Assembly (NCBI GenBank): GCA_030770535.1
Contig: JASVEC010000002.1
Span: 1,550,001-1,614,000, forward strand
Direction of reading: 5' to 3'
Length of the DNA stretch: 64,000 bases
Origin: Batkoa obscura
Lineage: Eukaryota
Both the position numbers and the translations under genes were made by a program. The number at the start of each line of letters is the position of its first letter. The first letter of the stretch is position 1. This document shows positions 12,836 to 57,567 of the stretch, one piece after another. Below the pieces are notes generated by a model. The model saw only the letters and a list, made by a program, of their open reading frames with translations, made no database searches and had not been told where the DNA came from.

Positions 12836-13309
12836 TTAATTTGAAGAGATGGAGTTTGATCGTTTAGCTTTTTGGCGTCTATTTTGAAACCAAATCTGGA
12901 TAGTACGGGGTTTTAAGTTAAGAGATTTAGCTAATTGCACTCTTAAGCTTCGATTAGGGAAAGGAGTAATCATATAAGCTCTTTCTAAAGAATCTACTTG
13001 GTTTAAAGATTTTCTAACTCTCATCCCTGGGAATTCTAGAAATAAATTTTCATTCGAATATATTGAATTAGATGATAATTCATTACATACACTAGATCTA
13101 TTACGCTTATGATAGGGCGTTGGCGAGATATGATTGTTTAAAAGAGACCAGTTGATTAGTTCTGACATACTAGGTAATTTTTCCAAAGACTCATCACCAT
13201 AAGTTAAATTTTTCAATTCGGGTAATTTGATATCAGAGTATAAATCGTTGGGATAATCAAAGTAGGAATAGATTTTATGGCTTAGCGAGAATTGATTTAA
13301 GTAGTTCAT
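12836..13309 (-). CDS. Homeodomain transcription factor HD1 (Q50, intronless)
   Basis: RVRKSLNQVDSLERAY..PFPNRSLRVQLAKSLNLKPRTIQIWFQNRRQK; N-terminal KLPSMSEL. First ATG at 13309; TATATAA ~52 bp upstream. Confidence 0.92.
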   Translation of the reverse strand: MNYLNQFSLSHKIYSYFDYPNDLYSDIKLPELKNLTYGDESLEKLPSMSELINWSLLNNHISPTPYHKRNRSSVCNELSSNSIYSNENLFLEFPGMRVRKSLNQVDSLERAYMITPFPNRSLRVQLAKSLNLKPRTIQIWFQNRRQKAKRSNSISSN

Positions 13310-16217
13310 TTTTAATTTTTTATAGTACAATTAAAAATTAATATTTGATTATTTACTCTCTTATATACTTTTTAATCGTAACTTTTGGACAATTAAAATT
13401 AGTAAAATTTTCAAATAAGCTTACAACTTTTTTTAGCTCCTTAACTTAAGCATTCGAGATGAGTTTTTCCCCTATATGGCTATATCTTCTAAATTTCATT
13501 ATCCCCTTTTTCTATTTGAAATAATTATAATGCAGGTTTAGATTCAGGGTTAATACTTAATTAAACCCTATTTTTTATAGAAAAGGTAATGTATTGTTTA
13601 TTGGCTTATAAGCCTATTAAAAGCAAACATTTAACTGTTTGTTGGTTCTCATGGGTGTCAAGTTACCTTAGTTTGTAATTTATATTTACGTTTAGTGATT
13701 GTAAATAGAGTGTACGCTTAGTTATTAAGCCATAGTAACTTTTCTCCTTAAATTTTTTTAAAACAATTTTTTTTGTTAAGTGACCAATTTAATAAGAAGT
13801 CAGAAATTAAAGAATTAATCTTTATAATTTATAATATCATCAATTTATAACAAAGAACTTATTAAAGTTTCATAACTAAGAGTGAAAGTAATGATCTAAT
13901 GAAAAATATATTAATTAACGGGACTATTCTTATATGCTTTTTATGTGATGATATATAGTCGAAAAAAGAAAGGCAAGATAAAATTGATTTTATAACTATT
14001 TTTTACAAAATCTAGTTATAATATTAAGACAGTATAAGTTTCTGTAGTCAATGTGTTTATTCAAATTGTAATAAATACATTGTTTTTTTTAGATATATTA
14101 ATTAATTAATCAAAATTCTTTTCAACTTTAATTCAATAAATTATAGTACTAGAATTATTTAATAAACATACCTCTTAAAACATATAGATAGGTATATTTT
14201 GTTAACATACCAACATTTATTTACTTTATTTGTATCCCAACTTAGAACAATTCTATGTAGTCAAAGTCCTTAAAGTCTAATTTTAATTTGTTTTAACTCC
14301 AGATTAACTGAGCTTATTTTCATGGAACTATACCATATTCAATTTTATTTGTTTCAATTTATTTGACTATTTCTATTGGAGCACCCCATTTCATACCATA
14401 TTAATTGCAATTTATATCTATTTTAATCACTCTAGACTCTTTATTCAATATAAGACGATAACTGAATGGGTCTTTTTTCATTTAGTATAATCAGATATTA
14501 TTGTTGTTATATAAATATAACAAATAAAATTATCAAAACTTATGAAATCATAATCTAAGTTATGGGTTTATTGAGTTTTAAATCGATCTTATTTTTTTGT
14601 TATTTTAAGTATGGTATTTACTTTTTAATTACAGGTTTGTGTAGGTCACACTATGCTAAAGCTATTTTAAAAAGTAGACTTAGTTTTATGCCCTGGGATT
14701 TAACACAAAAATTATTGACTAATAAACGGAGAGTATTTTTTGAGAAACTTTCACAACTTAATTCGGATCAAAAGTTCAAGATAAATTAATATTAGCCCAG
14801 TCTATTTTAATTTATTACAAACGTTTTTTAAACGTTGAGTTTGAATTAAAATGATAATGATTTAACAGTTTTAATAAAAAAAACAGTGTTATCATATATA
14901 TTTATAAATATAATAACCAACAAATTAATTAGAACCTAAAAATGAAATAATTGAATTAAATATGTAGCTTTTATTACAATTATTATATGGGCAATATCTA
15001 TTATATTCAATTTATATTTGGTACAATGGTGTGGATAAATAGTAAAATTTAATCAACATTGGAGGTTAATTTTAACAATCTTTTTTAAAAAGTTGTAATG
15101 TTATAACTCAATTTATGGTTAACTTTTGCATTTTTACTTAAATCACCTGAATTCGCCCCTTAAAACATTAACCTGTTTAAGGATAGTTTTATGTTTTTTT
15201 CCATTATTTATTTTTAACTTATTTACTTTTATTTATTTTAAAATAACATTTTGTTTTGTTTTGTTTTAATAATATTGAAATTGTTGATAAAATGATATTA
15301 ATATTTCTAATTTAGTTTTGCAAATTTTTATATTGCTCTTTTATTTCATTTCATTTTTTATCTTAATATTGAAGTTAGTTTGACTTAAAAAATTTAGAAT
15401 TAATTAAGTTTAAGCCAATCAATTTCTGTTTTTCTATTATTGCCTTTTTTTGTACAATTTCTCCAACCTATCTAACTTATTAATATGTTTTAAATATTTC
15501 TCCATTTTCTTATTTAATGATTATGATATAGCCCCATTTATTATGATAAATTACTTACAAATTATTTCTATTAACGTTTTATTATATATTGCTTGAATTT
15601 GAAGTAAATAGACTTAAAGATTTCATTACAATAAATTTTGAAACATAGAAAGTATATATATATTTAGTTAATAAATGTCATAGTTGTTTAATAAGATATT
15701 TGAAATTAATTACAATGATAACTACCCTGTGCTTTATAAAGGATCGGATAAAAATAAACAAAGTTAACCAAATAATAATTATCTAGTTTAATTAACCCCG
15801 GTTAAAATTTAAGTTTTATAAAGGTTGTAACTTTAACACTGTAACATTTTTTAGAAGTTGTACGATAAATAATATTTAAAAAAGTGACTTTTTGATATTA
15901 TGTTTAAAGTTATAATTTTATATTATTATTAGGCTATTTAATAATATAAAGTTATTAAATAAATAACTTAAAATAAAGTATTAAGATTAAATAATATTAT
16001 CACAATGAATGAATGAATGATTAATTAAAATAATAGGAAAACAATTTTTAATAAGTAAGATTAAGTTCAAATTATAATATATTAATATAAACATTAAAAA
16101 TCCTATAAATTACAGTGATTTAATATAATTTTTTTAAAAAGTAGAAGAAAAAGTGTAGAATACTTCCGACTGAGGGAATATCATAAAACAGTTATAATGA
16201 TTTTTTAAAGGGCTATG

Positions 16218-16718: not shown

Positions 16719-17986
16719 TGGATTTTTGATCTTTTAATATTTAAAAAGTTAGATCTAATATAAGTTAGTGAGCATCTTTTTATAGGGTTGCTATATAGAA
16801 AATTGTGACTTCTACCTAATGATGCTTTACGCTATTTATTAGCATTTATATTTACATATTAAGAATAAACAGAAAATTTCAAACTCATGGTTCACCCCTT
16901 AATCACATATCCTATTGAGTTTCATAAAAGTAAAAATATTTCAAATTTTACTACTTGAAATTATATCATTGGATTAGGTGAGTGTAACATCATAAATTTA
17001 TAATTCATTAAAATATTATTCCGGTTTATTTTTGCCCTTAAAAGTTGTAAAAATAAAACATTTTTACTTAACTTTTGTAATATATTGAGATGGTACTTTT
17101 TTACTAAGGGTTATTGACCCACTCTTAAATCAAACTATCGAACTTATTTTTTATACTCCCTTATTGTTTTTAAAAATAGCAATAGTATAAACTTGAGTAA
17201 TATAAAACAAGGCAAAAAATTTCAACATGAAATTATTTCTAGATTGACTTTAATAAAAAAAAATAATTTATTAATGTTTTAAAGTATCGATTCATTACTT
17301 TTTCTTATGTATAATTTTATGTTTTATTCGCTATTACATCTTTTAGCTTTGTTATATTTGATTATTGAACCCCACTTCCATACATTGGAAATAAATCAAT
17401 ATTATATTACATTATAATATAATACATCATTTATTAACTTAGTTTAGTAATACTTTAGCCCGTAAAATTCATGGCTTTATTAAAAATAGTTAGATCATTT
17501 AATTTAACAATGCTATAATATTTTACTATTTTATTATCCTTTCTATTATTATAGATAATAGATCGTAAAGCTTATTTAGTACTAATTGAAGATAATTAAA
17601 GGATACCTCACCTCAATTTAGTTCAAAGTCGATAATAGATTAGTAGCACTTATGTTGATCTAGTCATAAAGTTATTGATATCAATTTTAATTTTAAAACT
17701 AAAAATAGTGGAGTTAATGATTTTTTATCCGTATATTTATTTTAATACAAAAAAAGCTCTTGAACAATTGCTTAGACCCGAAAACTCTTTATAGACTGAG
17801 TGATTTAAGTTATAGTATATCTTTTTGAAGAATATATTATCCACCAAGATTGAACATTTGCAAAGCAAAAATTCAACAAGATGATTAAATTTGCAGTATT
17901 TTGTCAAGTCTTTATTGAGTTTTTTGTTTGAAATTGTTAACTGTTAGAGTTTTGTACATTTTTTAAGATGGTGTAAAACATTATAT

Positions 17987-18096
17987 GAGGATGTATTTTT
18001 GTGTTTAAGAATTTTACTAACAATTTTTCCGCTTAAATAGTGCTTAAAAATGGAAATTAAAAATGGAAAAAATGATGAAGTCAAAAAAACACTCCC
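17987..18096 (+). mobile_element. MITE family A copy with small internal duplication
   Basis: Consensus match; taaaaatggaaa duplicated; TSD ATAT. Confidence 0.85.
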
Positions 18097-18400
18097 ATAT
18101 TTATAAATTTTTAAAGGGGGAATATACTTTATAGGATATAGCCGCTAAAAGCCAACACGTAATGTTTTGAAAGCATAAAGGAGAAAGGCTATTTAGTCCC
18201 ATTATAAGCCTAATTTGCTTAAATTAGAGACTGTAACTGACTTGTAATATTTTTCAATTACACACTTTTAATATTCTAGTATAAAGTATTAAAAATAACG
18301 ACTTTATAAACTACAATATAATTTTTTTATTATATACAAAAGTTTAGTTTCAAATCATAACTTTCAAAAAAGAAACTATTTATAAAAAATAACATAATAT

Positions 18401-18500
18401 GGGGGGAATGTTTTTTTTGATTTCATTACTTTTCTATTTTTTAAGCGCTATTTGAGTGGAAAAATTGTTAGTAAAATTTTTAAACATAAAAATATAATTC
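18401..18500 (-). mobile_element. MITE family A copy
   Basis: Reverse complement of the consensus; right end degraded. Confidence 0.8.
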
Positions 18501-18853
18501 ATTATAAAACTAAGTTTCAAATTTTATTTACATTTTAAACTTTTTATCATAAGTTTTTTTATAGTTATATTAAAGAATATTTTAATATGAATATTTGTGT
18601 TTTTTATTTATATTGATTATCATTATTATTATTTTATATTTTTTTAAGTAATTTTTTTTGTACTTTATTTTTGCAATAACTTATTCCAAACTTTTTTTGA
18701 ATTTCCAGCCCTCTATAACTGACATAAAGCAATTAAACTTAAATATCATATTTTTAATCAACTACTTAAATAAAACCATTAAATAACTATGGTTTTGTTA
18801 ATTATGCAAAAACTGAAAATTAATTTGAATTAAAAAGTAAAAAACAATTATAT

Positions 18854-18950
18854 GAGGCTGTATTTTTTGTTTAAGAGTTTACTAACAATCTTTCCACTTA
18901 AATAACGCTTGAAAAATGGAAAAAGCAATGAAATCAAAAAAAACTTCCCC
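18854..18950 (+). mobile_element. MITE family A copy
   Basis: Consensus match; TSD ATAT. Confidence 0.85.
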
Positions 18951-19410
18951 ATATAAAGTTTTAATTCTCTAAATCAGAATATATGCTTAAAAATACACAT
19001 ATAAACTTAATTTTTAAATTAATGATATTATTATTATTATTAAATAAAGGTGTTTTTTTAGTTTCATCATTTTTCTCTGTTTTCTAGTAAATTAAATTAT
19101 AATTAACTTAAAAATAACAGTTTTTTTTGTTAAAATATAAAATGAAAATATTTAAGAAATCATTATTTTAACTTAAAGATTAAATATAATTGCTTAAAAC
19201 TATGAAATTTAATGCTTAGTAAAAAACAGTAAAACTTAATTATTTATTAGAAGTCAAAATTTTTTAGCCTCAATAACTAAAACAAACTTGTAATACAATG
19301 TTTTACGAAACTTAATTTTTATATAAAATACTTTAACAATTTTTTCAAACTTTAGTTAATTAATTCTAATAATAAGCAGTTTATATAAAAACAGCAGAAA
19401 ATGCTAATAA

Positions 19411-19509
19411 ATGGTGTTTTTTTGGCTTCATTACTTTTTCCATTTTTCAAGCACTATTTGAATGAAAAGATTATCAATAAAACCCTCAAACAAAGAAATA
19501 CATCTCTAG
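19411..19509 (-). mobile_element. MITE family A copy, diverged
   Basis: Reverse complement of the consensus with degraded ends. Confidence 0.7.
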
Positions 19510-19687
19510 ATATTAAATTAATAAGTTCAAAATTATAAAATTTATAAAAGTTAAGTAAAATAATTATAGTATTAAAACAAAGCTAATACTTGTATGCTTT
19601 AAGCTATATAGTTAATAAATTTTAATTTATGAAAATAATATATGACTGTTATCTAAGTTATAAAAAATATATTAAAATATAATAAAT

Positions 19688-19786
19688 GGGGATATATTTT
19701 TATGTCTAGGAATTTTACTAGCAATTTTTCCACTCAAATAGTGCTTAAAAAAATGTAAAAAGTAATGAAGTAAAAAAAATACCCTC
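19688..19786 (+). mobile_element. MITE family A copy
   Basis: Consensus match; non-palindromic TSD AAAT/AAAT. Confidence 0.85.
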
Positions 19787-19907
19787 AAATATTTAAATAA
19801 CTAAAATATAACTTATTAAACTAAGTTCATATTTTTGTTATTCTCCCAGACTATTTAAAATGATCAAAAGTTTAAATTAATTTGTATAAAAAGTATTGTC
19901 TTATTTA

Positions 19908-20371
19908 TGTGAAATCTGGTACTCAGTGATTGGAGTCAAAAGTAGTTTTTGCTTGGTTGACTATGCTATAGGTCGAAAGGTCTTAGTTTATGTGACTAAG
20001 ATAAACTTGAATTATCTAGAATAACATGTAATAAGCTACAGACTATGTAAGACAAATAGAATAGACAATACTAATCTAAGATCTATGTAAAGTACTATCA
20101 GAAAGGTTTAATAGCTTCATTAAAAGTACAAAACATCAAGGAATAATTCAATTTAAAAACCTCAAGCTACTATGTTCTAGAATCTCTTTTATACTTCGAC
20201 AAGTATAGATATAAAAATAAGAAGGCAATATTCTTTGAGAGGAAGATAGAAATTCTCATAGTAAATCAAAATAAGAGTATGAGATTGATTGTCTCTGAAC
20301 TCGAGAATACAACAGCTTAGGTGGCTATTATGCTATAATTAACCACGGAGCTGACAAAGCGATATCTTACA
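19908..20371 (+). mobile_element. Family B solo-LTR-like copy
   Basis: TGTGAAATCTGGTACTC...GCGATATCTTACA; colinear with the 10761 copy; no clean TSD. Confidence 0.8.
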
Positions 20372-21040
20372 TTATTATAACTATTTGCCCTTTATTATTT
20401 ATCAATTCAGCCACTAATAGTTTAAATAACATTAACATTTAATGATTGATTTCTATCATTTAAAAAACTACCTACTTGCTTTATAAATATTGAAACTTTT
20501 AATTTTTTATTATTTTTATAATATAAGCTGGAATTAACTTTTAAATTTTTTATTTTCTATAGACTTTATAACTTTAATTAGAACTATATTATTTTTTTGA
20601 TCTATTATATACTAGATAACAGTATGGGGATGTTTTTTTGACTTTATCACTTTTTCTATTTTTTAAGCACTATTTGAGCAGAAAAGTTGTTAGTAAAATT
20701 CTTAAACACAAAAATACATCCCTATATAGTTTATTATTGTTTGATAAAATATAAACACTTTTCAGTAGTTTTTATTTTTTTATATCTTTATTTTTTTATA
20801 CTTTTTAAAAATTACACCTGTTTTTTTACTATTAATAGTTAAATTATTGATTTTGTTATATTTACAAATAAAAATATTAAATTTTGAAATTAATTAACTA
20901 ATATTTTTTATTTTACTTAATGCTTTAAAGCTGTTTTTATTATAAAAGATTTCCAAAATATTCATTAATTATATTTTTTTATAATTCTTAGCAAAAAAAA
21001 TTAGAATTTAAACTACTATTTATTTTAACTTTTTTTAAAT
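20372..21040. repeat. Decayed dispersed repeat (family C), copy 1, interrupted by a MITE
   Basis: Alignable by eye with 59161-59630 (e.g. taacattaacattt..attgatttctatcattta; tagactttataacttta; tttacaaataaaaat). Confidence 0.7.
20626..20723 (-). mobile_element. MITE family A copy nested in the family C repeat
   Basis: Reverse complement of the consensus; flanks gtat/atat. Confidence 0.85.
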
Positions 21041-21043
21041 CTA

Positions 21044-21509
21044 TGTGAAATATCGCTTAACCAGTTTCATGATTGATCATAGCATAACAATCACTTAAGT
21101 TGTTATGTTCTCGAGTTCAGAGCCAATTGATTTCATGCTTTTGTTTTGGTTTGGTATGAGGGTTTCTGCCATGTGATTCCGAAGGACATTATCTCTCTGT
21201 TTTGATATTTGTACTTGTCGGAGTATAAAAGAGATTCTAGAACATAGTAGCTTGAGGTTTTTAAATTGAATTACTCCTTGATGTTTTGTACTTTTAATGA
21301 AGCTATTAAACCTTTCTGACAGTACTTTACATAGATCTTAGATTAGTATTGTCTATTCTATTTGTCTTACATAGTCTGTAGCTTATTACATGTTATTCTA
21401 GATAATTCAAGTTTATCTTAGTCACATAAACTAAGACCTTTCGACCTATAGCATAGTCAACCAAGCAAAAACTACTTTTGACTCCAATCACTGAGTACCA
21501 GATTTCACA
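21044..21509 (-). mobile_element. Family B solo-LTR-like copy (inverted relative to the 19908 copy)
   Basis: Reverse complement of family B, with both termini present; no clean TSD. Confidence 0.8.
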
Positions 21510-21589
21510 CCCATATATATACTATTTAATAAGTATTTATTATTATTTTTTATCAAACCTTAGTAAAACAATTAAATTATTTAATATAC

Positions 21590-21686
21590 AGGAGTGTTTT
21601 TTTTGGCTTCATTACTTCTTACATCTTTTAGGTACTATTTGAGCGGAAAAAATGTTAGTAGAATTCCTAGACACAAATACACCCCC
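21590..21686 (-). mobile_element. MITE family A copy
   Basis: Reverse complement of the consensus. Confidence 0.8.
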
Positions 21687-23293
21687 ATATATTATATGAT
21701 AGTTTTAATTTACTTATTCTTACTTTTTTTATATTTTAATAATAGGCTGTAATATTAATACACTATTACTATTAATTATCTTTGAATAAACATCGATTTC
21801 TATTTATATTCAATTCAAAAATTTTATCTTCATCAAACATTCAATAGAAATGATGTAAAATGTATAACTAAAAAATTATTTAAAGGAAATAAAGAAATCT
21901 AAAATTTAGATTAATTTTTAGTTAAATTCTGAAATTAATCTAAACATCGCTATATATTTATTGAATATAGTTTTATAGTAATACCATATAAGCTACTAAT
22001 TTAAGCACAAATAAAATTTATAAAGCTTAATTATATTTAATTCAATTTTTAAATTTAGTAAAAAAAAAGTATTAATACAGTTATTATAACTTTTTTAATA
22101 GGAATTTTTATAACTGAATTATTATTTATATAATTAATTTTTAATACTTAGTCTTTATGCAATGCTTTTAATTATTAATGATTGAAAAATGGTTATTCAA
22201 AGTTAAATGCTTAATTTCAAAGCAAATTTAAAGATATTGCATTTTAGTTAATTTTATTCAATTTTATTCAAATAAATATTTGAAGTAAGCTACAAAAAAT
22301 CTGGAGCAGCTAAAATAATCTTAGTCTTGTAAAATGGTAATTAAATTAGCTGTAATTTAAAAAAGCTAAATAATTTTAAAATTAATATGTCTTGTATTAT
22401 AGTTTTATAAACAAAGTGTAATATAAGACTTAAAATTAATAAAAATCAATATAAGATAGCTCATAATTATTATTTTTAAGTTTTATATCAATTGTATTAT
22501 AAGATCATAGTATATTAAAAACACATGTGCTAATTTTAAAATCATATTATTTTTTTGAACTATATGAAAGCTAATTTTGTGTCACTACTGTATTATAATA
22601 GATTTATATAAAAGAGTATTTAAAATTTCGATCCATGATTAAAGAAGTTAGATTGTTGAGATGTTATATTAGTTTGTTTATAATTTAAGCTATATTAAAG
22701 GTATTATTATAACAAGCAAATATATCAACCTTTATAATGCAGTAGGATAAGGACATTGTTATTTCGTAAAACAGGTTGTATTATATAATATTAACATATA
22801 TATAATAGTTACTTAGTGTTATATTTTTATTATACTACTAAGATTAAAATTGATAAAATTTAATTACCCCCACTCTTAACTCACAACAACTACAAAGTTA
22901 AATCAAACTTAACTAATCCCAAAAAAACATTATAAAAAAGCCACCTTTTTTGGACCATATTAAAGCCAACTGCCCAAAAACCAGCCAGTTTAAAAAGAAA
23001 ATTATGCTTTACTAAATATATTAAAAAGCACCCAAAGTAAAAAATAACTAAAATTTAAAACATATTAATGGAGAAAAAGAAGCAATTAAAAAGATTTCGT
23101 TACAAATTTAAAATTAGATCGCATTCTTCAAACGATTGAAACTAAGCTTTTGAGATTTGGGGAAACTCACGTGGGGTTTGCAAATGGTGTATTGTATTAA
23201 TAGATAGTCGAGTATAAATAAAAAAACAAAGAGGTATATAAATATATTAAAACTTAATATAAAAACAAAGTTCAATTAATACAATCAAAAGCC

Positions 23294-24019
23294 ATGAATT
23301 TATTCCGCTACTTTTTACTAATAGCTCCGATCGTAAGTCTTCCAAATTTAACAAAAAGGCAAAATATGGCGTGTAGTGGTTGGACAGAAGAATTTGCTAA
23401 TGGTATGGGGATGTTTAGCGCAGAAGGACAAACTATGGTCCAGGATGGTAAACTATTTTTAAAGATAAGCCCGGGAAATACGCAGAATCAAACGTCTGGA
23501 ATAACAATAGGATATGGTGCGAAAGTGATGAGTAATACCAAGATATTATATGGTAGTTTAAATGCGAGGATAAAGTCAGCAAGAGTAGGAGGGGTAGTTA
23601 GTGCTTTTGTATTGATGTCAAATGAGAAAGATGAAGTAGATTGGGAATGGGTAGGTAAAGATGAACATAGTTCTCAAACAAACTACTATTATCGTGGGGA
23701 ATTAGATTACACAAAAGGAGTTTATATTCCTAATTCATATAATACTTATCAAGAGTTTCATGATTATGGAATCAACTGGACTCAAGACGAACTAAGCTGG
23801 CTAATTGATGGAAAGGTTGTCCGTACGGTAAAGAAGAGTGAAACAGGAGAAAAGTTTCCTAATACTCCTACAAATATCTATTTCTCAATTTGGGATGGAG
23901 GTGCAAGCGCAGCAGGGACAAGAGATTGGGCAGGTGGTCAAATTAATTGGCAAGATAGTGAAATAGTTAAGAATGGATATATAGCTATGGAAGTAGAATC
24001 AATTACATACTCATGTTAA
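23294..24019 (+). CDS. Secreted glycoside hydrolase family 16 protein (Crh/Utr2-like transglycosylase or glucanase)
   Basis: Signal peptide, catalytic DEVDWE (ExDxE) motif, GVVSAF, FHDYGINWT and WAGG motifs typical of fungal Crh-type GH16. Confidence 0.93.
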   Translation: MNLFRYFLLIAPIVSLPNLTKRQNMACSGWTEEFANGMGMFSAEGQTMVQDGKLFLKISPGNTQNQTSGITIGYGAKVMSNTKILYGSLNARIKSARVGGVVSAFVLMSNEKDEVDWEWVGKDEHSSQTNYYYRGELDYTKGVYIPNSYNTYQEFHDYGINWTQDELSWLIDGKVVRTVKKSETGEKFPNTPTNIYFSIWDGGASAAGTRDWAGGQINWQDSEIVKNGYIAMEVESITYSC

Positions 24020-24078
24020 ATAATAACTTTATAATAACAAGCTTTATTTTTTAAAATAATAAAAAGGATTAAATTAAT

Positions 24079-26567: not shown

Positions 26568-26614
26568 ATAATATATAGCTTAAATTGACAATATAATATA
26601 TAGCTTAAATTGAC
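26568..26614. repeat. Short tandem duplication (ataatatatagcttaaattgacaa x2)
   Basis: Direct repeat visible in the sequence. Confidence 0.8.
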
Positions 26615-26933
26615 AACAATTTAATCCAAACTAAATTAATAAGCTTTATCTAAATTTTAATAGCAAACATAGATTATTTGTGAATGGGCTATATTATTTA
26701 GTAAAATATGACAGTATTTAAATGTAAAAATAACATTAAAAAAGATCAAGTCCAAAATATTCTATTAAGCTATTCTTATTTTTATTTTATACATTTTGAT
26801 GGTGCCAAATTATTTTTCCACAATCTTAAACTAAATTCATATCTAACTACTACAAAATGGATGGACCAATAAAATAGAATGATTAAATTACCAGACTACA
26901 AAGCAATTTTTTCTAATATTAACTTCTTTAAAC

Positions 26934-29098
26934 ATGAAAAACAATAATTCAAGGATAAATAAGTTTAGTGACTCAAATGGAGATCTTAATGAGAATGGAA
27001 TTTCAGAGCCTAACATTAGTGAAATAAGACATGGATTAGAAGCCTTGGATGATTTAATGGTAATTCTGAAATATGTAACTAATTTAATATTAATTAATAT
27101 TTAGAATAAATATCTTGAAGTAGGGGGGAATAAAATCAAAAATACAGCGATTCAAAGTTTAAATGAAGAAGTTACCAGAAAAAATGGAGGTATTACGACA
27201 ATTACGTACAAAAGAAATTTGGATGAAGAATATATACCAGGAGAAGAAACAAACAAAAGCCAAAGTAAGCACAACGGTAGAAGAGCATCAAGTAGAAATA
27301 GCAATGAGAATTTGGATAAAAATGAATACAATCAGTCTTACTACAGTGAATTGTCTAAAGAAATGCGGAAAAAGAAGGTGAAAAGTGACGGTGTCTTGGA
27401 AGCTGTTAAATATAATGAAAAAAAATTTGGGCTATCAAAAAGTAAATTTCGATTGAGTGAAGCAGAATTAACGGTGGTAAATGGGGGATCTAACCTAAAG
27501 TTGAATAGGAATAACATCAATCGCTCAACATTTAGTGAAGAGGAGCCTTCAATTTTACTTGATAGAAGTTTTGATAGGGATAACTCATTAAACTTAGACG
27601 ATGACATTACGTTTAGTAAAATAGAATCGATGTTAATTGAACCTCAAAAACGAATGGAGCCAATTTATCAAAATCCGAGCTCAATTCAAGTAGACAAAAA
27701 GATTAAACAAGATAGAGGTGATTTATCGACTAGTTTTTTAGAAGGAATTAGTAATGTTAGGGAAAATAGCATTGATGATTTAAATGAAATTCCATTTGAC
27801 AAGCATTTAAATAATAAAAAATTAGATATCAGGTTAGAAGATGATATATTACACAATTTAAGTTTACCAGAAAAGTTGTTCAAATTCAATTTATCAAGTA
27901 ATAACGGCGAAGCGTTTGATATTTTAGAGAATAAAGAAACAGATAAAATGTTTTATAATAAATCAGAAACGGAATTATTAACTACAAATCGTAAAAAAGA
28001 AGGAATAAATCAAAGTCAAGTTAACTTGACTGCAGCACAAAAATTAAAAGTGGAGTTACAAAACATAGAGTTAGAAACCAAGAAAGTCAACATTGATAGA
28101 ATACTTAATAAAAACTATTACGGGAACTATAATGCCCAACATAGTACTCCGCTTTCTAGTAAAAGAAACTACACTAGCAATGATAAGATCGAATTCAGTG
28201 GTAAATATAATTAACTATGCTTTAAAAAATAATTACTAAATATTACAGATTTAAACATTGGAAAAGAAATAAAGGCTAAGCTAGTTAAACTTGATTTTTA
28301 CAAAAAAGTAGAGGTAAATAAGATTCAAACACTATTTAATAATAAATCAATATGTTTACTTTTATTTAGGATAATTATATGGTTGATTATACAGAATTAA
28401 TTCGACTTGGATTTTCAGTTGAACTACGATCAACAATGATAGGTAACCTAGCTACCTTATGTAATAAATTAGAACTGCCTAAGGACGTATTGTTTGAATC
28501 TGTACATCATATGGATCGATTTTTAACTTGTCATAAATTAGTTAAGAATGAACACATAATTTATACTTCTCAATTATGCTTTTATTTTGCAATGTATCTA
28601 TTCAACTCAGAGTGTATCCCATTCAATGAGTTTTTAAATATATGTAATGTTGATTTAAATCGTTATAAAGTATCTCGATATTTCAAGCGAATTAATTATT
28701 TTATCATGGATAACTATCGAACGTACATTCCTATTAATGATTACATAGAATTATTCGTATCTGAGCAAAAGGACTGTTTAAATCCGCTGTTTAAGCAAAT
28801 AGTTAAGTATTTAATGGAAGTAACTTTATACAATGAAAAGTTTTATGAATATAAAAAAAGTTTGATAGTCACTAGTTTAGTCCAGGTTACAAAAGAGATG
28901 TTGCATATTAAAGGATTGATTTTTAACAGTCACATTTTGAATAAAGAGAAAGAAATGGAATTAAAATTAACTCAGCAGCTTTTGAAGCATTCTATTAAAG
29001 CTATCCCAAATTATCCCAGTGATCATACTTATTCGAAAGAGTACAAACATGTACTTTTTATTGTTAAATCTTATTATGGGTTGACTGAAACTAATTAA
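26934..29098 (+). CDS. Divergent cyclin-fold protein with long low-complexity N-terminus (4 exons)
   Basis: ATG at 26934. Introns at ~27060-27104, 28201-28248 and ~28313-28369 join ORFs 27219-28214 and 28379-29098. Cyclin-box-like segments LRSTMIGNL..LELPKDVLFESVHHMDRFL and C-terminal KYLMEVTL...KSLIVTS. Confidence 0.75.
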
Positions 29099-35207: not shown

Positions 35208-36241
35208 TTACATTAATTTCGGGGAAGCTTTGAAATAGGCAATAGGTAGATCACAAGAGTTGGTCCCATCTAAAGACTCCGTTTCAGATTTATCAAAGGC
35301 ATTTGTTTCTGGGGCAGAGTTTGGAAAATAAAAGCTGGAATCATCTGGAATATCAGGAGTGTGATTTTTAGGTTTTTTATTTTCCTTAGATAAATCTTTA
35401 TCAGTAAAGTTAGATGGTTCAACTTTCATCCTTCTTTTTGTTTCCTCTTTTCCACCCTTTTCGTCATTAGAACCAGCTACAGAATCCATTAATTGTTTAT
35501 ACTGTTCTGGAGGAATAGTCCAATAGATGGGCTCTAACATATTATTGTAGGTCGATAAATCTAAAGAATCAGATTAAAATTTAAAACAATAACAGTTATC
35601 TATTACTCATTATTTTATCTTCTTTCATAATAGTTTTATATAAAGTTGATATTAATTCACTATGATGGTATAGACTTAAAACATTAGAAAATCACATATT
35701 GAAAATTTCAAGGAAGTAATACCCATAATCTTTCGAAATGTTTTCACAATAACTCAGAACATTATCATCAAATGATAAATTCATTTCCTTTTCATTTCCT
35801 GTTACTTTCTCCTTTTCCTTTGATTGTAATATTTTAAGCTTGTCAATAATCAATATACACGCTGAGCCAAACTTGAATTCATACCTTCTTTTATTGTATC
35901 TTTTTAGCTCCACTGAATAACTTTTTTCAAACTGGTTATCCCAAGAAGTGAGAATGCAGACGACACTGTAAACATCAGATCTAAAAAGCGCAACAAATAT
36001 ATCTTTCTCATCATTATTATTAACTTCTGACATTTTTATTTCCTTTTTGTTAATTAGTCCTACTTTATAATTCAATTTATGTACCTATTATTCATTAAAA
36101 GACTAAATCAACATAAATTTATATTACTTCTTCTATAATTCCTTTTCTACTCTTTTTACACCATTCTTGTGACTCGTTACTTTTTTCCAACAACTCATGG
36201 GATACCATTGTGTTTTCCAACCATCCTTTTTCCTCCCCCAT
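35208..36241 (-). CDS. Hypothetical multi-exon protein
   Basis: ATG at 36241 (MGEEKGWLENTMVSHELLEK...), donor at ~36127 and acceptor at ~36085 lead into ORF 35692-36075. Further short introns lead into ORF 35208-35540. No recognisable domain. Confidence 0.55.
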
Positions 36242-36964: not shown

Positions 36965-39070
36965 TTATTTGATAAATTTCTTTTCAGATAAAATTGAATT
37001 AATCAATAGGATACAAAGCGAGGAGTCAACAGTAAAAGCAAAGCAAAGATTATTAGTAGAAAAAAGCAACTCCTTACCTCTTTTGATTTGGTTAATTAGA
37101 TCAGCTTTATAATCTTGATTGAAATTTGAGTATTGATCTATAAGGAAAAAGAGACAAATAGTTAATACTGGACACCTTGAAGCAAAATACTTGTTAGTAT
37201 TAAATATTTGCTCCTCAATATTAAAGATTTCTTTGCATATGTTTAAACCCAGGTCTACATATTTATTGTGTATTTTTGCATTTGGATATTTTAGCAACGC
37301 TTTGTTGTGATACATAAAGCTAGATGACAGTTTATAAACATTTGATTTTAGCTCATCAACAGTTATATCAGTATTTTCTCTACAGCACGAATAGCTTGTT
37401 TTGAAAGGTATAGTAATAACTGGCATTAAACTAGGATTTGGTAAAGGTATTTCAAAATCAATATAGAATACTAACTGAATAGTTTTTAAAAACGCACATA
37501 ATGAATGTAAGGATACGTAACCTAAAACTGCGAATATTGGGCGCCACAAAGGCTCTCGATCAATAGGTAATAAACCCGGTTTAGGAAGGTATGGGCCTAA
37601 ATTAGTAATCAAATTATGCTGGAAATTTACTTGTACTTTACGTATTTCTATTAATAGCCAAGAGATACTTTCTATCAATTCGCTACTATTCAAACTGCCA
37701 TTTAAAACATTATTTCTAGTAAAACATATGTAGCTCATTACCCTAGATAAATGCAATAAAGTGCTGCTTATTAACAGCGAACAAATATTGCCAAAGAATG
37801 AATTAACATCTTTTGGATGAAGATTAGTATGTGAAAACAAAATATTTGGATGAAACTGAAGTTCTTTTTTCTTGAAATAGTATATTACAGAGTAAAATGT
37901 ACATGGAACGTTCATTCCTAGGGCTGATAATGCTTCAAAGTAGATGATTCGATTATATGCCATCCTTCTTTCAATTTTGATTTTGATATTCAGTTTTTTT
38001 GGGTACTTTTTTTGATGTAATCCTAAACAGTGAGATATTTCCAGCATCATGCCATAATTAAATTTAATTGGTGATGTACCCCAGTTATAGTGCTGTAAAC
38101 CATGTATAGTAATTAGTATTGCTTGTAAAGAATCTAGACTTGGATGAGTATATGTGCTTCTTAATCCAATATAAACTTGGTAATGCAAGTATTTTAATAA
38201 AATCTGATCCTGCTCTTCAGTCGGTAACAAATGGATTCCGCAAGCCCATAACGCCGACAGTAAGAATATCGATCTTTCTTGTCTCTTGAAACTACTTTCA
38301 AGGAACAGTGGTAGAAATCTATTTACACAATCAAAATATATTTTTTCAGCTTTCAAAATAATACATTGATGCTTTTCTATCACTTGATAAAAAGTAGACT
38401 TAAAAAAATAGGGTAAAGTTGCTAAAGATGAGTAATCTGCTTTTGATATATCTGGAAGTTGGGCCTTTTTACTTAAACTTAAGAAGCTTTCCAGACCCGG
38501 GGTCTTTTTGTCCTGATACAAAGGAAAATTAAATAATACTTGAAGAAAACTTATCCAACCTCCCCTTGGACTATTGAAATTTATAAGCTTGACAGATTCA
38601 TTCCATTTATTTAAACTATGGAACGATATCATTGTGGAATCTTTCTTTCGAATATGTTTGTCGTTTGATTTTTGACTCTCAATAAATGTAACTCTTGTTT
38701 TGAATTTGTCCATAAGCCCCCATTTTTCTACTTTAAAATCAATACTATTCTGTTGTTTGCTATTTCCATTTTGATCTAATTCTACTTCTCTGAACGTTTT
38801 TAAGTTATCGCAAACTGAGGTAGATTTTGGTAATCTTAATAATATATTATGTGTAATAGTTTCTCTTACACTATTTTTTTTTCTACCTGATTTTCTTTGA
38901 TAGCTGCATTCTTTTTTCCTTATAGCACATGGTTTACAAGTTGGGTAAGTCCTATCACATTTTCTTTTTCGTTTGTAGCAGTCATTACATGATTGGAATT
39001 GAATCTGTTCGATTTTCGAACTACAAGTTATTGAATTAGCGCCTTGTTTTTGAATACCCTTTGAATCCAT
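36965..39070 (-). CDS. Zn(II)2Cys6 fungal transcription factor with middle homology region
   Basis: CNDCYKRKRKCDRTYPTCKPCAIRKKEC zinc cluster; downstream YFDCVNRFLPLF, LQAILI, LGLH and ERR motifs of the Fungal_trans domain; intronless, 701 aa. Confidence 0.95.
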   Translation of the reverse strand: MDSKGIQKQGANSITCSSKIEQIQFQSCNDCYKRKRKCDRTYPTCKPCAIRKKECSYQRKSGRKKNSVRETITHNILLRLPKSTSVCDNLKTFREVELDQNGNSKQQNSIDFKVEKWGLMDKFKTRVTFIESQKSNDKHIRKKDSTMISFHSLNKWNESVKLINFNSPRGGWISFLQVLFNFPLYQDKKTPGLESFLSLSKKAQLPDISKADYSSLATLPYFFKSTFYQVIEKHQCIILKAEKIYFDCVNRFLPLFLESSFKRQERSIFLLSALWACGIHLLPTEEQDQILLKYLHYQVYIGLRSTYTHPSLDSLQAILITIHGLQHYNWGTSPIKFNYGMMLEISHCLGLHQKKYPKKLNIKIKIERRMAYNRIIYFEALSALGMNVPCTFYSVIYYFKKKELQFHPNILFSHTNLHPKDVNSFFGNICSLLISSTLLHLSRVMSYICFTRNNVLNGSLNSSELIESISWLLIEIRKVQVNFQHNLITNLGPYLPKPGLLPIDREPLWRPIFAVLGYVSLHSLCAFLKTIQLVFYIDFEIPLPNPSLMPVITIPFKTSYSCCRENTDITVDELKSNVYKLSSSFMYHNKALLKYPNAKIHNKYVDLGLNICKEIFNIEEQIFNTNKYFASRCPVLTICLFFLIDQYSNFNQDYKADLINQIKRGKELLFSTNNLCFAFTVDSSLCILLINSILSEKKFIK

Positions 39071-39942
39071 AGTTACAGTTTTAGCTTAACTAATAACTAG
39101 ATATATAAACAGTTTAATAAAAATTTGTTAACAAATATTTTGATCCTTTTATTAATTAATACTTAGAAGTGAGTTTGTCCCACGCACCTCCAAATAAGTC
39201 AAAAAGTACTAAAAATATTTTAGCGCGAAAGCATTCTTATTAACAAAACATTGTATTTGTCACAATATATTTTTTACTATCTGTGGTTGACATTAGCCTT
39301 TTTAAGACATTTTAATCTAAGTTCTTTGCTCACTTTAGCTTTAATACAGCTCATAATTTTTGAGGATGGTGCTTAAAATTTTAAGCTGAAAAGATATTAG
39401 CTTAAAAAGTTGTTTGAGAGAAAGTCCAAAAGCTAATTAGAATTTAGCTGCAATATAATGGGTTAGTTATAACCACTTCAAAGTTTAATATATAATGGTC
39501 CAAACATACTCTTGAACTATTTACTTTTAGGCAATTAGTAAACCAGATCATATCACTCTAGATTTCCTTAGCTACAGCCTTTACCTTTAAATTTGTTATT
39601 TATTACCATCATCTGATCTTTGGTTCTTTAATTATATCACCTGATTAATAATGGCAAAGCCTGGTACATATTATGGTGCTACGCATAACCTTCTTTTAGC
39701 AAATGTAAGTTTAGATATAAAATGGTTGACTATGAGTATTAATTCATATGCTATATGTCTAGATCTCACATACATCTATTACGTTGTAGTTTATTATTCA
39801 ATTGAATTTTCATGGTAATTTATTTGGGGTTTACAAGAATGACATGTAAGAATCAATAAATGAAGTAATTTTTAAGAATGTTTAAAAAATGCCAATTTTA
39901 TAAGATTCTTTTAAAGCTACCAAAGTTATTTTTTTATCAAAA

Positions 39943-41493
39943 ATGGGACAATCTAATAGTATTATTTCAGAAGAGAGTAATATTAAAAGCGAAATGCCAA
40001 ATAAAGAAATACTAAAGATAAACCACAGTTTAAGTAAGACCTTCAAAAAGGATACAATGACTTACAATGATTTTAAGGTAAGTGAAATTTCACCTTTAAA
40101 GATTTAGAATAAATGAAATTAAACTTATTTCAATCAGGATGCTTTAAAAACAGATTACTTGAATGATGAAATGATTAAGCTGTATTTTGTCTTTTTTTTA
40201 AATCTTTCGAACAAAAGCATTACATCCCAAACTGAAATTGAAAATACGGTACTTCACAAAAAGTGGATCATAGCGGGATTACCAACATTACTAGGAGATA
40301 TAAGAGACAATAGTTTAAGCAAGAAGAGTTTAAGCTTTCTTAAATGGCTATCAACAGTTGAGGAAGTAGAAATTTTAGGAAGAAAGGAAATTATAAATAG
40401 AATTTCAAAGGAGTTTACAGTACTACTTTTGAAAGGTCTGAAAGGCTACATAAGATTCATCCTTAAAGAAAGTAGTATTTTAGAGGATAAAAACAGTGAA
40501 AACAATTTGGATAGTTATATTGATGATATGATCTTATTTATAGAAGATTTATATTTTAACACCAATTTAATTCCCACAAATAATATTGACAAGTTCTTGC
40601 AAAACAACTTCACAAATTGGTTCATTTTATTAGACTCATTAAATACCAAAGTATTTTTAGATCCAGTAATAAATGAATCGATTTCAAGATCGTTTGGTGA
40701 AGCAGAAACCATTCCAAATATTGATAGCCCTAGTGAAATTTTAACAAATAGTGATATACTATTTTTAGCTCTGTCGATTATCCCTATTCATCGTGAACCT
40801 AATTGCAAGCAATATAGGAAGGAACTTCAACTATTATTTCGAACAAGTACTAATGGGTTTAGCACTAATAGATTTGAAACTCATTGTTTTATGTACCCAG
40901 GGCCAACATTAACATTGTTTAGGTCGTTATACGGAAAAGAAGAAAAGGAAGTAATTTTAGCTCTTTATTCAGAAGATCCTTGGAAAAGATCTTCAACCCC
41001 ATTTTCTAAAGGAAATATAAAACTTATAGAGCTTTTCCCTAACCGACGTATATTTATTCCGAAAGAACCTGTAAGCAATAATGATCCTGGTCTACTTCTA
41101 TATCACCCAGCCAAAGGAATATTGATTGGTAACCCACCTTTAGTTAAATTAGATAAGGATATGCACAATTTGTCATATGATATAAGTCAGAACTACAGTA
41201 CTAAAGCACTATACACTCATATCCCTAAAATGCCATTGAATCCTTATGAACCATTAGAAAATATGGAATTAATCGAAATGGAAGTTTATGGGTTAGGAGG
41301 CAAAAAAGCCAAAGAGGAGCAAAATAAAGAGTGGGAGTTTGAAAAACAAGAGCAAATGAATAGAACAAAAGTATCTGTATTATCAGACCCTCATAACCCT
41401 GAAAATAGAATAGTTTTGGAAATGGCCGGCTTAGTTTCAGACAGTCAAAGTATTAATAATCTAAGAGGAACATCTAAAGAAGAAAGGGACTGA
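39943..41493 (+). CDS. TLDc-domain protein, Rtc5/MEAK7-like, predicted N-myristoylated (2 exons)
   Basis: Exon 1 starts MGQSNS (myristoylation consensus); intron 40078-40137. TLDc motifs LLFRTSTNGFS, YPGPTL and EMEVYGLGG..A..EQ..EW.FE. Confidence 0.85.
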
Positions 41494-53220: not shown

Positions 53221-53315
53221 GAGGATGTATTTCTATGTTCAAGGATTTTATCAATAATTTTTTCGCTCAAATAGCACTTGAAAGATGGAAAAGGTGATGA
53301 AGACAAAAAACACCT
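53221..53315 (+). mobile_element. MITE family A copy, diverged
   Basis: gaggatgtatttctatgttcaaggatttt...gaagacaaaaaacacct. Confidence 0.75.
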
Positions 53316-55072
53316 GTATAAAATTCAAGTTTTTTATGACATTAAAGCCTGGAAAAGTAGTATGTCAAGTATTTCAAAAATTAAAGTATTTTTCAGCAAT
53401 TAAAAAAATTTGATAATTATATGAAAAGGATTAAACTTGTTGATTGTCCATAGCTAGAAAAAGAATTTAAATGCTTTAAACTGGAATATTATTAAAATTT
53501 ATATAGTTTTTTCAAGATAGAAGTCGCAGTAAAGTTGTATGATTATAATACCTAAATGTTTACTACATTCTATTCTTATTTTTAAAATAAATTTTAATCA
53601 AAAAACCCAATAGTTAAATAAAAAATGCTATATAAACCAATAGTAAAATTATATTTTCCAACCTGGAAATTTATAAAAATAGTACAGATATAAATATACA
53701 CATAAAATAGAACAAATATAAAATCATGTTATCAAAAACCAAAAGTTAAATGTTATGTTTTAAAAACATTTTTTAAAATAATATCTGAATTTTAAATGGC
53801 TAATAATCAAAACATTGTAATTTTGAACCAAGAAGTTATTAATATTGTTTGTTTTATATTTGTAATTATTATTTGTCACTAAAACTGCATGTTAGCTGTT
53901 AAATGCTTTTCAAGTCTAATATTTATTGACTTTTATTCCTGATTTAAAATAGCCCTAAGTTGTTTAATTTTAGTTTTTGATTTTTTTTAATATTTAAAAT
54001 AATATTTAAAAAATTACTGCATATTTTCAATAAAATTCAAATCTGGGCTTTAAGCAAATCAATACATAAAATTGTAAATTTAGTAAGTGGGGATTTTTTT
54101 TTAAAGTTTTCTCTGATTTAGAAATTGAGCTAAAATATTAATGAGTTTTTTTGATTTACAACTTTAAATTATTATTTTATCATTATTTTATTTAATTGTA
54201 TAATATTTTTTTATCATTTTATTTATTTGTTTATATAATATAGCCTAAGCTTAATACAATTTTTTTATGTATAGCTTATCTAAATAAAGCTTATAAACTG
54301 CTTTATATAATTTAAAACTTACTAATATCAAACTATTTAAAGTATTTTTATAAGCATAAATATTCATATGTATATTTATATTATAGAGTTAAAATTTAAT
54401 TAATTATAAATGATAATAATAGATTTTTTTACCAGCTTTGTTCATGATTTTTTTAAACCCTTTAATATATAATAAAAGCAAAAAATTACTTACAATATTA
54501 ATTCTGATACTAACACTTTATGTTATTAATTATGAGATATTGATAGCTTTTATCATACTATTTAAAAAACACTTTAATACTTTTTAATATTACAATTTAC
54601 ATAAAGATTATAAGTTAAGGTTTGATAATCTGAGCTTACAATGTTGATCAATTATCAAAAAAAATGAAAAAACAGTTTTTTTTCAGGAGTATAAAAATTA
54701 ATTTGGTATGACTATATATTTGGAACTTGTAACTTTAAAATTAATACAATACAGGCTTATCAAAAATTATATGCACAAAAGTTTAACAAAATTGAAAACT
54801 ATTACTAATTTGTGATGATTTAATATAGCTTAAGTAGTTTTATATGATTTATTGATTTTTGTCTTATTTTTTTAGGTTGACTGCCTTGAGTCGTATTTTT
54901 CTTCGACTTTTATATAGTATACAAATTAATCACTTGATCCTATTAGTCATTTGATCCTAAATGTTGAATATTCTTACATGAAGTTAAATAAAATAACAGT
55001 AAGAATATTTAATAAAAAATATGTGCTATCAAAAAATAAAGCTACAGAGCATGGCTATTTAATCCATGTAAT

Positions 55073-55135
55073 ACTATATTATATTATATTATATTATATT
55101 ATATTATATTATGTTATATTATATTGTATGATATT
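55073..55135. repeat. (ATATT)n pentanucleotide microsatellite
   Basis: Tandem atatt units, degenerate at the right end. Confidence 0.85.
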
Positions 55136-55673
55136 TTGATTTTTATAATGGGCTTAATTTCTGAAATGTTCATTTTAAATAACTTCAATTCTACAAAACC
55201 TTACCCTTCTTGATCAATTATGGCTAAATTTCAAAATGATTCTAACAGCAGTTAACAGCAAGTGTTTAAACTATAAATACAATTTTTTTAAAAGTCAATG
55301 GTGTTTTTTTTGTTTTTTTGTCTGTTTAAACATCAACACTATGCCAATTCATTAGCTTGATTTTATTAAGGTTTTTGATTTTCAATAAAGAAAATTCAAT
55401 AAGTTTGACAGTACGGATCAAATGAATATTGGGATCAAACGACTAATTTGTATTTTATTATATTAGTACATGATTTTAAAATACACTTGTCCTATTTTTA
55501 TGTTAAAGAAGCAAAAATAACAACTCAGCTTTTTTTTAAACGATTTACTATCTTTTCAATGATACACTAATATCAGATAATATAAAGCTGCTCGGATTGA
55601 TATATAAAATAGATCATAATGATTGTATTAGTTAAATAGAGTTGTAAATCGAATAACTTTTGGAATGTGATTT

Positions 55674-55770
55674 GGGGATGTATTTTTTTGTTTAAGAATT
55701 TTACTACAACCTTTCCACTCAAATAGTGCTTAAAAAATGGAAAAATAATGAAACCAAAAAAAACAACCCC
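55674..55770 (+). mobile_element. MITE family A copy
   Basis: Consensus match; TSD ATTT/ATTT. Confidence 0.9.
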
Positions 55771-56871
55771 ATTTGTTATTTTGGTGAACCGTTTTTTGAA
55801 GAAAAGCACAAGATGTGTGTGTTGTATTTTTTATAGTTCAATGAAAATATTTTAAGTATAATCTATAAGTAAATTTTCGATGAATATGGTCATTTTAAAT
55901 GAAAAACTAAAAAATATTTGAGAAAGAAAATTAACATTTTGATTATCATTCTTGTTACATTATGCTTACTTCAAAAGGTATTTTTATGAAAATGAACTTG
56001 AATTAGAATAAAGCAAAAGCTAACATTGTGGATATCACTATTTTGAGAAAAACGTATATTCGAGTTTAAATGTTTAAACAAAGTTTGGTCTTTATGTATA
56101 ACAAAGTTGAAAGCTCTTTAATATCTTAGTATAATGAGGAATATATTATTTTAATCGCTACACTTTAAGTTAAGAAAAATCATATAAATTATAACAAATG
56201 ACATTTAAAATAAACTAAATGATAGCACTGAATTTAATATTAAAGAATTAATTTAATAGCTTAGTATAAAACGTTAAATGAAATAGTGTTTAAAGTACAA
56301 AAGTTAAAACAACAGTATCATCCTGTAATCAAATAAAAATAAAAACTTTAATTTTTAAAAGATAAGTTTCACCTGAGTTTGAATGTAAAGTCCTCTCCTC
56401 TATCCTTACAACCATTTCAAAACCTAAGTAATGATTTGATTTTGTTCTATGGCGAAGCAAATCCACTAATGGTCAATTTTAATTAATATCTGAGTTTGAA
56501 ATTATAATCCCGTTTGTTTTATTTTCACTCATAAGCTGTATTTAAAATTTAATAATGTATCTTTAAATTTAATGTTTTGAAATGGTCCAAGTTTTATAAA
56601 TAGATCACTTTTTAATCAGAACTATTTAAATAATTTATTTATCTATTTCTTGATCAAATATTATTTGAGAGACAAAATTAAATTTCATTAAAAGTAGTAA
56701 TTTTTATCTAATTTCTTTAATATTATGTTATAAATTTTCAAACAATTATAAAAGTAAAAATCATAAAATAAGTTTAATAACGGAAATCAATTTATTTGGT
56801 TCTAAGGAATAACAAATGATATTTACACACAATAAGTTACATCATTTGTAAGATGATAACAATAGGCTCGA

Positions 56872-57567
56872 CTATACTCTATACTTGTAATTTCTTTGAC
56901 TAATAGAGTCGATTGGGGAATTTAAAGCATCACTTTTATTATAAAATGATGATGTAGGAGAGGCAATAGATAGTGCAGAAGATGTTGAACATTGAGTTAA
57001 AGCGGAGCCTTTTAATATTTTCTCAATTCCTGGGCTAACTCTTTCATGTACTTTGTTTGTTTTTCTAAATGCTGATCTTTTGTTTTGGAACCAGATCTGG
57101 ACTGAACGTTCAGTCATGTTTAACTCGTCAGCAAGCCTCATACGTGTCGATGTAGTAGGGAAAAAATTGGATTTGAATACGTCTTCTAAAAGTTGTCTTT
57201 GTTCTGGAGCTGCTTTCTTTCTTCTAGGAATTGTAGTATTAATGGTTTTGGATTTAGCCCTTCTAGGTGACTTAACTAGATAGCCTATAATTGAGTCCTT
57301 AGTGTATGGGATAGAGGTGTTACCACTGTAGTTTTTTCCAAGGCCATTTGTATTTAATAGTCCTAGTTCACCTATAGAAGGAAGTGAGACACTATTAGAA
57401 AAGGCTCTACGCTTGTGGCTTGGGGAAGCATAAGTGCTCAAAGGAATATAGTTATTTTCAAAAGTGTTAATATCAGATAAATTATTGCTATTTAAAGAAG
57501 GGAGATCATGACTGAAGTTTGGCATGTAAAGAGTTTGGGTATCAGTGATAGAATAACTTTGATACAT
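56872..57567 (-). CDS. Homeodomain transcription factor HD6 (Q50, intronless)
   Basis: PRRKKAAPEQRQLLEDVFKSNFFPTTSTRMRLADELNMTERSVQIWFQNKRS; N-terminal SLPSIGEL. Confidence 0.94.
   Translation of the reverse strand: MYQSYSITDTQTLYMPNFSHDLPSLNSNNLSDINTFENNYIPLSTYASPSHKRRAFSNSVSLPSIGELGLLNTNGLGKNYSGNTSIPYTKDSIIGYLVKSPRRAKSKTINTTIPRRKKAAPEQRQLLEDVFKSNFFPTTSTRMRLADELNMTERSVQIWFQNKRSAFRKTNKVHERVSPGIEKILKGSALTQCSTSSALSIASPTSSFYNKSDALNSPIDSISQRNYKYRV

Follow-up and report, generated by a model that had tools for sequence, protein, structure and literature searches.

Six linked and diverged homeobox genes in an entomophthoralean fungus: a probable lineage-restricted tandem array

Six homeobox genes within 45 kb

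We analyzed a 64,000-nucleotide stretch of a Batkoa obscura assembly (GenBank GCA_030770535.1, contig JASVEC010000002.1, positions 1,550,001 to 1,614,000; hereafter the window, numbered from its first nucleotide), in which a first-pass annotation made from the letters alone had marked a cluster of homeobox genes. Six intact open reading frames (ORFs), each starting with ATG and encoding one complete homeodomain, lie within 45 kb: HB1 (12836-13309, minus strand, 157 residues), HB2 (16218-16718, minus strand, 166 residues), HB3 (24079-24522, minus strand, 147 residues), HB4 (32636-33079, minus strand, 147 residues), HB5 (48172-48672, 166 residues, the sole member on the plus strand) and HB6 (56872-57567, minus strand, 231 residues). 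All six score 50.1-62.1 bits with Pfam PF00046 (cut-off 22.9), and the places and strands given by the annotation agree with these coordinates. Scores with Homeobox_KN fall below its cut-off. The homeodomains are of the non-TALE class, lacking the three-residue loop insertion.

Fifteen homeodomain columns are invariant across the six proteins, including R5, L16, the FP loop, I47, W48, F49, Q50, N51 and R53, and position 20 is aromatic throughout. The ending [IV]QIWFQN[KRQ]R with Q50, proposed for the non-TALE domains of this cluster, fits every member, HB3 ending in the glutamine variant WFQNQR. Three six-frame scans of the window detected no seventh homeobox and no remnant of one. The claim that the ORFs have all stayed intact holds: six frames are open in a 25% GC genome, with no remnant beside them.

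The homeobox genes make up six of about 11 consecutive genes. A baseline of about ten homeobox genes per genome, adopted in the annotation, is wrong for this zygomycete: according to Shelest 2017 (PMC5415576), Conidiobolus coronatus has 27, seven Mucorales 27-51, Coemansia 11 and Dikarya mostly 5-18, so that the Dikarya baseline is too low where zygomycete relatives carry 27-51. The supplements of PMC11105155 and PMC10079182 contain no homeodomain counts, and the homeobox total in our chance test is taken from the relatives, not from this genome. Taking 27-51 homeobox genes in a total of 8,867 (gene number from PMC11105155), a genome should by chance contain six in eleven consecutive genes 1e-9 to 6e-8 times. 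The proposed excess over random expectation is thus confirmed, at a chance below 1e-7 with the relatives' totals. The test excludes random placement, not ordinary tandem duplication.

Pairwise homeodomain identity among the six is 33-57%, and similarity at the DNA level (BLAST) is almost limited to the homeobox, the flanking DNA having no shared sequence. The duplicates are thus old, as the annotation proposed, or fast-evolving. Sequence type tracks position. HB1, HB2 and HB3 share a derived type with a changed N-terminal arm and K55, and HB4, HB5 and HB6 retain A55 and a basic arm of the ancestral type, a difference that may alter DNA preference. TATA-like words lie close upstream of the ATG in HB1, HB2, HB3, HB4 and HB6.

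N-terminal motifs

Outside the homeodomain the annotation had noticed one short shared motif. A motif is indeed present in all six proteins, in two types rather than one: LPS[IM]xEL in HB1 (LPSMSEL at residue 45), HB2 (LPSISEL at residue 46), HB3 (LPSITEL at residue 37) and HB6 (LPSIGEL at residue 62), and S[LI]NF[IM]LN in HB4, as part of an EH1-like FSLNFIL near the N-terminus, and in HB5 (SINFMLN at residue 7). Both motifs were defined after inspection of these proteins, and with that definition the occurrence of LPS[IM]xEL in four of six was never reached in 20,000 shuffles, nor was that of one or the other motif in six of six. LPS[IM]xEL occurs in 7 of 96 relatives, the unlinked paralog P0003 (see below) among them, where 0.055 would be expected, and in none of 22 DUXA controls; the S[LI]NF[IM]LN type occurs in 6 of the 96 (1.2 expected). 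LPSIxxL presumably resembles the Mig1/CreA repression motif. MATalpha2 binds Tup1 through IxIxxLL, and the EH1 consensus is FS[VI]xx[IL][LM], as given by Copley 2016 (PMC4943189) and Burglin and Affolter 2016 (PMC4901127); FSLNFIL of HB4 is one residue off that consensus.

Database matches and family relationships

Where database proteins match, the identity to Neoconidiobolus thromboides (Entomophthorales) is 99-100%, and a single contig of that assembly carries five of the six homeobox genes. HB1 and HB2 are each 99% identical to proteins of N. thromboides FSU 785 with consecutive accessions (KAI9296339.1 and KAI9296338.1, respectively), the database model of HB2 starting 8 codons downstream of the ORF ATG. 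The models of HB3, HB4 and HB6 (P0290, P0289 and P0264) belong to the same 128,731-base contig of N. thromboides as an exact match to the neighboring Zn2Cys6 gene; they comprise 58-64 residues, the homeodomain only, of ORFs of 147-231 residues. No model of HB5 is among the listed database matches. The N-terminal motifs are therefore hidden in the databases. Elsewhere in N. thromboides, on other contigs, there are at least two further paralogs, P0003 and P0307, which are not linked to the array.

The nearest relatives of the six belong to a pan-fungal homeodomain subfamily of the form KRKRA...FPST, which has members in Mucoromycota, Zoopagomycota, chytrids and Dikarya. Membership is clear for HB4, HB5 and HB6 (57-63% identity) and weaker for HB1, HB2 and HB3 (46-54%), which are placed there on the FP loop, helix 3 and the LPS motif. 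Subfamily proteins such as N. thromboides KAI9296632.1, Basidiobolus ORY06084.1, Rhizopus delemar RO3G_16317 and Mucor OAD00537.1 have the same Q50, FP(S/T) loop and R(T/A/S)(V/I)QIWFQN helix, and are likewise short, with LPS/PIxxL or SLxxML motifs near the N-terminus. Their listed members in 13 other species are dispersed and conserved, whereas the six genes here are linked and diverged to 46-63%. The dispersal was read off the contig column: all 13 other zygomycete species for which two or more members are listed have them on contigs that differ in length, and for multi-member clusters that entry may belong to another member. We also scanned 80 metagenome loci (327,535 bases in total; 10 loci of at least 10 kb; no Entomophthorales locus among the 80) and found a second homeobox at none of them.

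No orthologue of HB2 was found outside N. thromboides (1 hit among 13 candidates), the matches listed include no other member of the Entomophthorales, and in a 50% representative library searched with HMMER no outside protein rose above the generic subfamily score (best 150; multi-domain proteins dominate the listing). PDB matches are generic animal homeodomains. Kinship to DUX/DUXA was considered and rejected; those scores are sums over two domains.

The clustered copies evolve faster than the unlinked P0003, as judged from both identity and branch length. Among 50 proteins compared, the closest relative of P0003 from outside shares 80% identity with it, against 52, 46, 54, 63, 63 and 57% for HB1 to HB6, and end branches of the clustered genes measure 0.25-1.6 against a median of 0.2. 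We built two trees, the first with 61 rows and a mixture model, which gave a long-branch warning, and the second with 37 rows under LG+G4, after 24 of the 61 rows (long-branch, animal and near-duplicate Mucorales or Agaricales sequences) had been dropped. In the 61-row tree the animal ANTP homeodomains branch separately, which supports an origin of the fungal array independent of the animal clusters. In the 37-row tree HB1, HB2 and HB3 form a clade (support 97/96), and HB4, HB5 and HB6 take no resolved position within the subfamily. Forcing all six into one clade costs 16 log units (approximately unbiased [AU] test, p 0.10, 37-row tree), and placing the six with the two unlinked paralogs in one clade gives AU p 0.28. 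A single origin of all six is allowed by these data, neither established nor rejected.

Transcription and sequence differences

Contigs of four runs per comparison were aligned to 12830-32829 and 47600-57900, with 32830-47599, including the 5' part of HB4, outside. The runs are unlabelled and their RNA nature is guessed. Run X5 behaves like RNA: it leaves several of the intergenic bins empty, and a contig of this run is spliced in the cyclin-like gene described below, joining 27130-28199 to 28368-29662. Gene-sized, gap-free contigs cover HB2 (X5, X10), HB3 (X5, X6, X10), the 3' part of HB4 (X5, X6, X10) and HB5 (X5, X9, X10), and the RNA-like contigs over these four genes stem from three studies. 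They bear out the description of the genes as intronless for HB2, HB3, HB5 and the 3' part of HB4; for HB1 and HB6 it rests on continuous ORFs. Those two genes have only short, shallow pieces in the RNA-like runs, which we counted neither way in judging expression. Genes were not ranked by contig depth.

Differences in X10 amount to 11/407 in HB3, 9/360 in HB4 and 21/619 in HB5 (2.5-3.4%), to 5.4% in the glycosyl hydrolase family 16 (GH16) gene and to about 9% in the cyclin-like gene. All 15 listed coding differences in HB5 are synonymous, in a set that holds a subset of the differences (10 of the 21 in X10); the expectation is 27% if the transition bias is taken as 5. They indicate that at least HB5 is under purifying selection, and HB3 and HB4 are probably kept by it as well. 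Of the seven listed replacements in HB2, six affect the linker and the remaining one the last residue; the 3 listed differences inside the homeodomain core are all synonymous.

Run X4 contains two haplotypes, each with roughly half of the depth; one is close to the window sequence, and the other differs from it by about 8-13% between genes (145/1098, 108/1344, 70/658 and 118/1045). Its source is a hybrid, a highly heterozygous isolate or a mixture. No contig on the aligned stretches bridges two homeobox genes, and linkage on the diverged X4 haplotype is thus unseen.

Neighboring genes and repeats

About five unrelated genes are interleaved with the array, matching the few that had been described. 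The GH16 gene (23294..24019, plus strand; Pfam E 1.3e-41) and HB3 are convergent, with 59 bp between their stops; one X5 contig covers both, and overlapping 3' ends are possible. A spliced cyclin-like gene (26900..29098, start approximate, plus strand) scores 24.3 bits with Cyclin_C and below the cut-off with Cyclin_N; its long low-complexity N-terminal part and weak scores point to a divergent cyclin. Between HB4 and HB5 lie a gene of two ORF pieces with no Pfam family above cut-off (35208..36084, minus strand), a Zn2Cys6 transcription factor of 701 residues (36965..39070, minus strand; Pfam and the exact database match) and a TLDc-domain protein (39904..41493, start approximate, plus strand; Pfam and BLAST). 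Outside the array, 3136-4068 encodes a 310-residue protein with a signal-peptide-like start, about 7 Cys-Pro-x-Gly ... Cys repeats and no Pfam family.

The multi-kb non-coding DNA described upstream of the homeobox genes is partly transposon-like repeat; in the case of HB2 this accounts for 45% of a 6.6-kb upstream region. A high-copy, transposon-like repeat block outside genes spans 17974..22577 by self-BLAST, and its summed contig depth in run X4 reaches 43,000 against about 60. A longer repeat of about 470-730 bp (19655-21725, 10755-11226 and 59160-59814) occurs with an inverted pair upstream of HB2 (19655-20372 versus 21043-21725, 80%), probably the remains of a non-autonomous transposon. 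An element of about 105 bp that resembles a miniature inverted-repeat transposable element, with short inverted ends TGGGGAT ... (A/C)CCCA and AT-rich sites, has 23 BLAST matches in the 64 kb (e.g. 29635-29742, 45666-45771, 55673-55772 and 60250-60357); this copy number and its very high summed depth in X4 indicate that it is very abundant genome-wide. Between HB5 and HB6, low-depth contigs of the RNA-like runs cover 49417-49985 and 51249-52991, one of them spliced (51249-51863). These stretches hold no long ORF, and the contigs are possibly non-coding transcripts or repeats.

Discussion

We interpret HB1-HB6 as a lineage-restricted tandem array of likely repressors, built from one pan-fungal subfamily, and give this reading a probability of roughly 0.65. 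One pan-fungal gene would have undergone repeated local duplication on the way to Neoconidiobolus, while a slowly evolving parent copy stayed elsewhere in the genome; P0003, whose separate location is observed, is the candidate. The clustered copies would have evolved fast into the two positional groups HB1-HB3 and HB4-HB6, the groups being visible in the sequence and the order of events our reconstruction. From family knowledge, the canonical I47/Q50/N51 helix predicts a TAAT-like core as the DNA target. The N-terminal hydrophobic motif, seen to be conserved, would recruit the Tup1(-Cyc8) co-repressor, and on these features the six proteins are likely DNA-binding repressors. They may act in stage- or condition-specific switching such as conidiation, by analogy with a relative: PMC9026835 places homeobox genes of C. 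obscurus among the lineage-unique families and reports two of them up in conidiation, one by log2 7.7. The linkage itself would more likely be a relic of tandem duplication than a functional requirement.

Comparable arrays are known from mammals. Rhox, Obox and Dux (treated in PMC4901127) are, as we propose for the genes here, lineage-restricted, fast-evolving tandem homeobox duplicates; they differ in being PRD-like animal genes with many near-identical copies and are not homologous to these six deeply diverged genes, which have left no remnants. The pattern of a conserved parent elsewhere and fast clustered copies fits them better than it fits a Hox/NK cluster. Hox, ParaHox and NK genes are also linked and mostly co-oriented, and the EH1-like motif of HB4 recalls NK genes, but ANTP-class membership and the YPWM hexapeptide are not found in HB1-HB6 (the animal domains form their own branch, and YPWM is absent). 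Among fungal systems, HD1/HD2 loci and MATalpha2 offer linked homeobox genes and an N-terminal hydrophobic motif akin to the Tup1-binding motif of alpha2; the present locus instead has no TALE partner and no head-to-head pair, and its six members are of one subfamily.

Several observations weigh against our interpretation. Free trees split the six, with 5 label changes (61 rows) or 3 (37 rows), and no bootstrap tree (0%) joins them in one clade. HB5 shows a weak affinity to P0003, which is unlinked (83/84); the alignment has 60 columns and little resolving power. The dispersal surveys lean to conserved copies, and fast-evolving arrays in other species would escape them, since the protein search missed HB2 itself. 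With only N. thromboides from the Entomophthorales among the matches listed, 'lineage-restricted' goes beyond what is demonstrated. Synonymous changes account for 5 of the 12 listed HB2 differences (p 0.20), not distinct from neutral, and in X10 HB2 (56/591, 9.5%) and HB6 (26/218, 12%) differ far more than HB3, HB4 and HB5; the HB5 result itself comes from the partial set described above, and the transcription evidence from runs whose RNA nature is guessed. As to repression, Copley 2016 (PMC4943189) cautions that such motifs are loosely defined in fungi when they lack the initial F, and that the Tup1 pocket seems ill suited to true EH1; the motif of HB6 ends in G, which is not hydrophobic.

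An alternative that we consider unlikely is a cluster that functional constraint has preserved throughout the Entomophthorales, because gene order and common regulation are important, with members active in successive stages of growth or sporulation; this would be a Hox-like logic of independent origin. Deep divergence (33-57%) with six intact ORFs and no remnant would suit it, as would the succession of HB1-HB3 and HB4-HB6 types, the shared orientation of five of the six, and the coverage by both X4 haplotypes (about 8-13% apart) of all 30 bins of both aligned stretches. It also gains from the rise of C. obscurus homeobox genes in conidiation (PMC9026835) and, as a lead only, from an Atlas group of 61 short homeodomain proteins that are mostly from Zoopagomycota (score 0.85, under 0.9). 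A cluster kept across the order is harder to square with the absence of an HB2 orthologue outside N. thromboides (1 hit among 13 candidates), with the failure of any outside protein in the 50% library to exceed the generic score (best 150), with the five unrelated genes and many repeats that interrupt the array, and with the lack of shared flanking DNA. Its strongest form, an Entomophthorales-wide cluster independent of animals whose members, arranged along the chromosome by sequence type, come on in turn to specify hyphal body, primary and secondary conidium and resting spore, strikes us as improbable.

The six may instead derive from two separate small arrays (HB1-HB3 and HB4-HB6) or from different subfamily ancestries brought together, rather than from one duplication series, which we also regard as unlikely. 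The 3-5 label changes in the free trees, the two motif types, the inversion of HB5 and its weak grouping with P0003 (83/84) all lean that way. A single clade was not rejected, however (AU p 0.10), HB6 combines the LPS motif of HB1-HB3 with the arm of HB4 and HB5, and separate arrival at one place is improbable by chance.

Less probable than either is a birth-and-death array in which some members matter and HB1, HB2 and HB6 drift under relaxed selection. All ORFs are open at 25% GC, 15 invariant homeodomain columns are kept, no pseudogene remnants are seen and the 3 listed differences in the HB2 homeodomain core are synonymous, against which stand the long branches, the 5 of 12 synonymous differences of HB2 and the roughly 10-12% difference of HB2 and HB6 in X10. 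An expanded HD1/HD2-type mating-type locus is suggested by the fact that linked fungal homeobox genes are mostly of mating type, by a candidate HD locus in Rhizophagus (PMC10386755) and by HB4 and HB5 facing away from each other, but is largely refuted by the absence of a TALE/HD1 partner (Homeobox_KN below cut-off, no three-residue insertion), the 15 kb and three genes between HB4 and HB5, the dispersed and conserved state of the subfamily in other fungi, the alignable alleles on both X4 haplotypes and the reliance of Mucoromycota on HMG genes.

In the literature, mainly open full texts, we found no account of this array or of another multi-gene fungal homeobox cluster outside the mating type, and the section on homeobox clusters in one review (PMC4901127) gives animal cases only. 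Homeobox clusters beyond mating-type pairs have been treated as an animal feature, and a six-gene fungal array would be an independent case. It lies in an early-diverging, culturable, insect-infecting fungus, where one can ask whether shared regulation or slow break-up governs such linkage. To our knowledge almost no regulator of the varied spore types of Entomophthorales has been described, and the array supplies six candidates. Were ordered switching across Entomophthorales to prove true, it would amount to convergent Hox-like logic outside animals.

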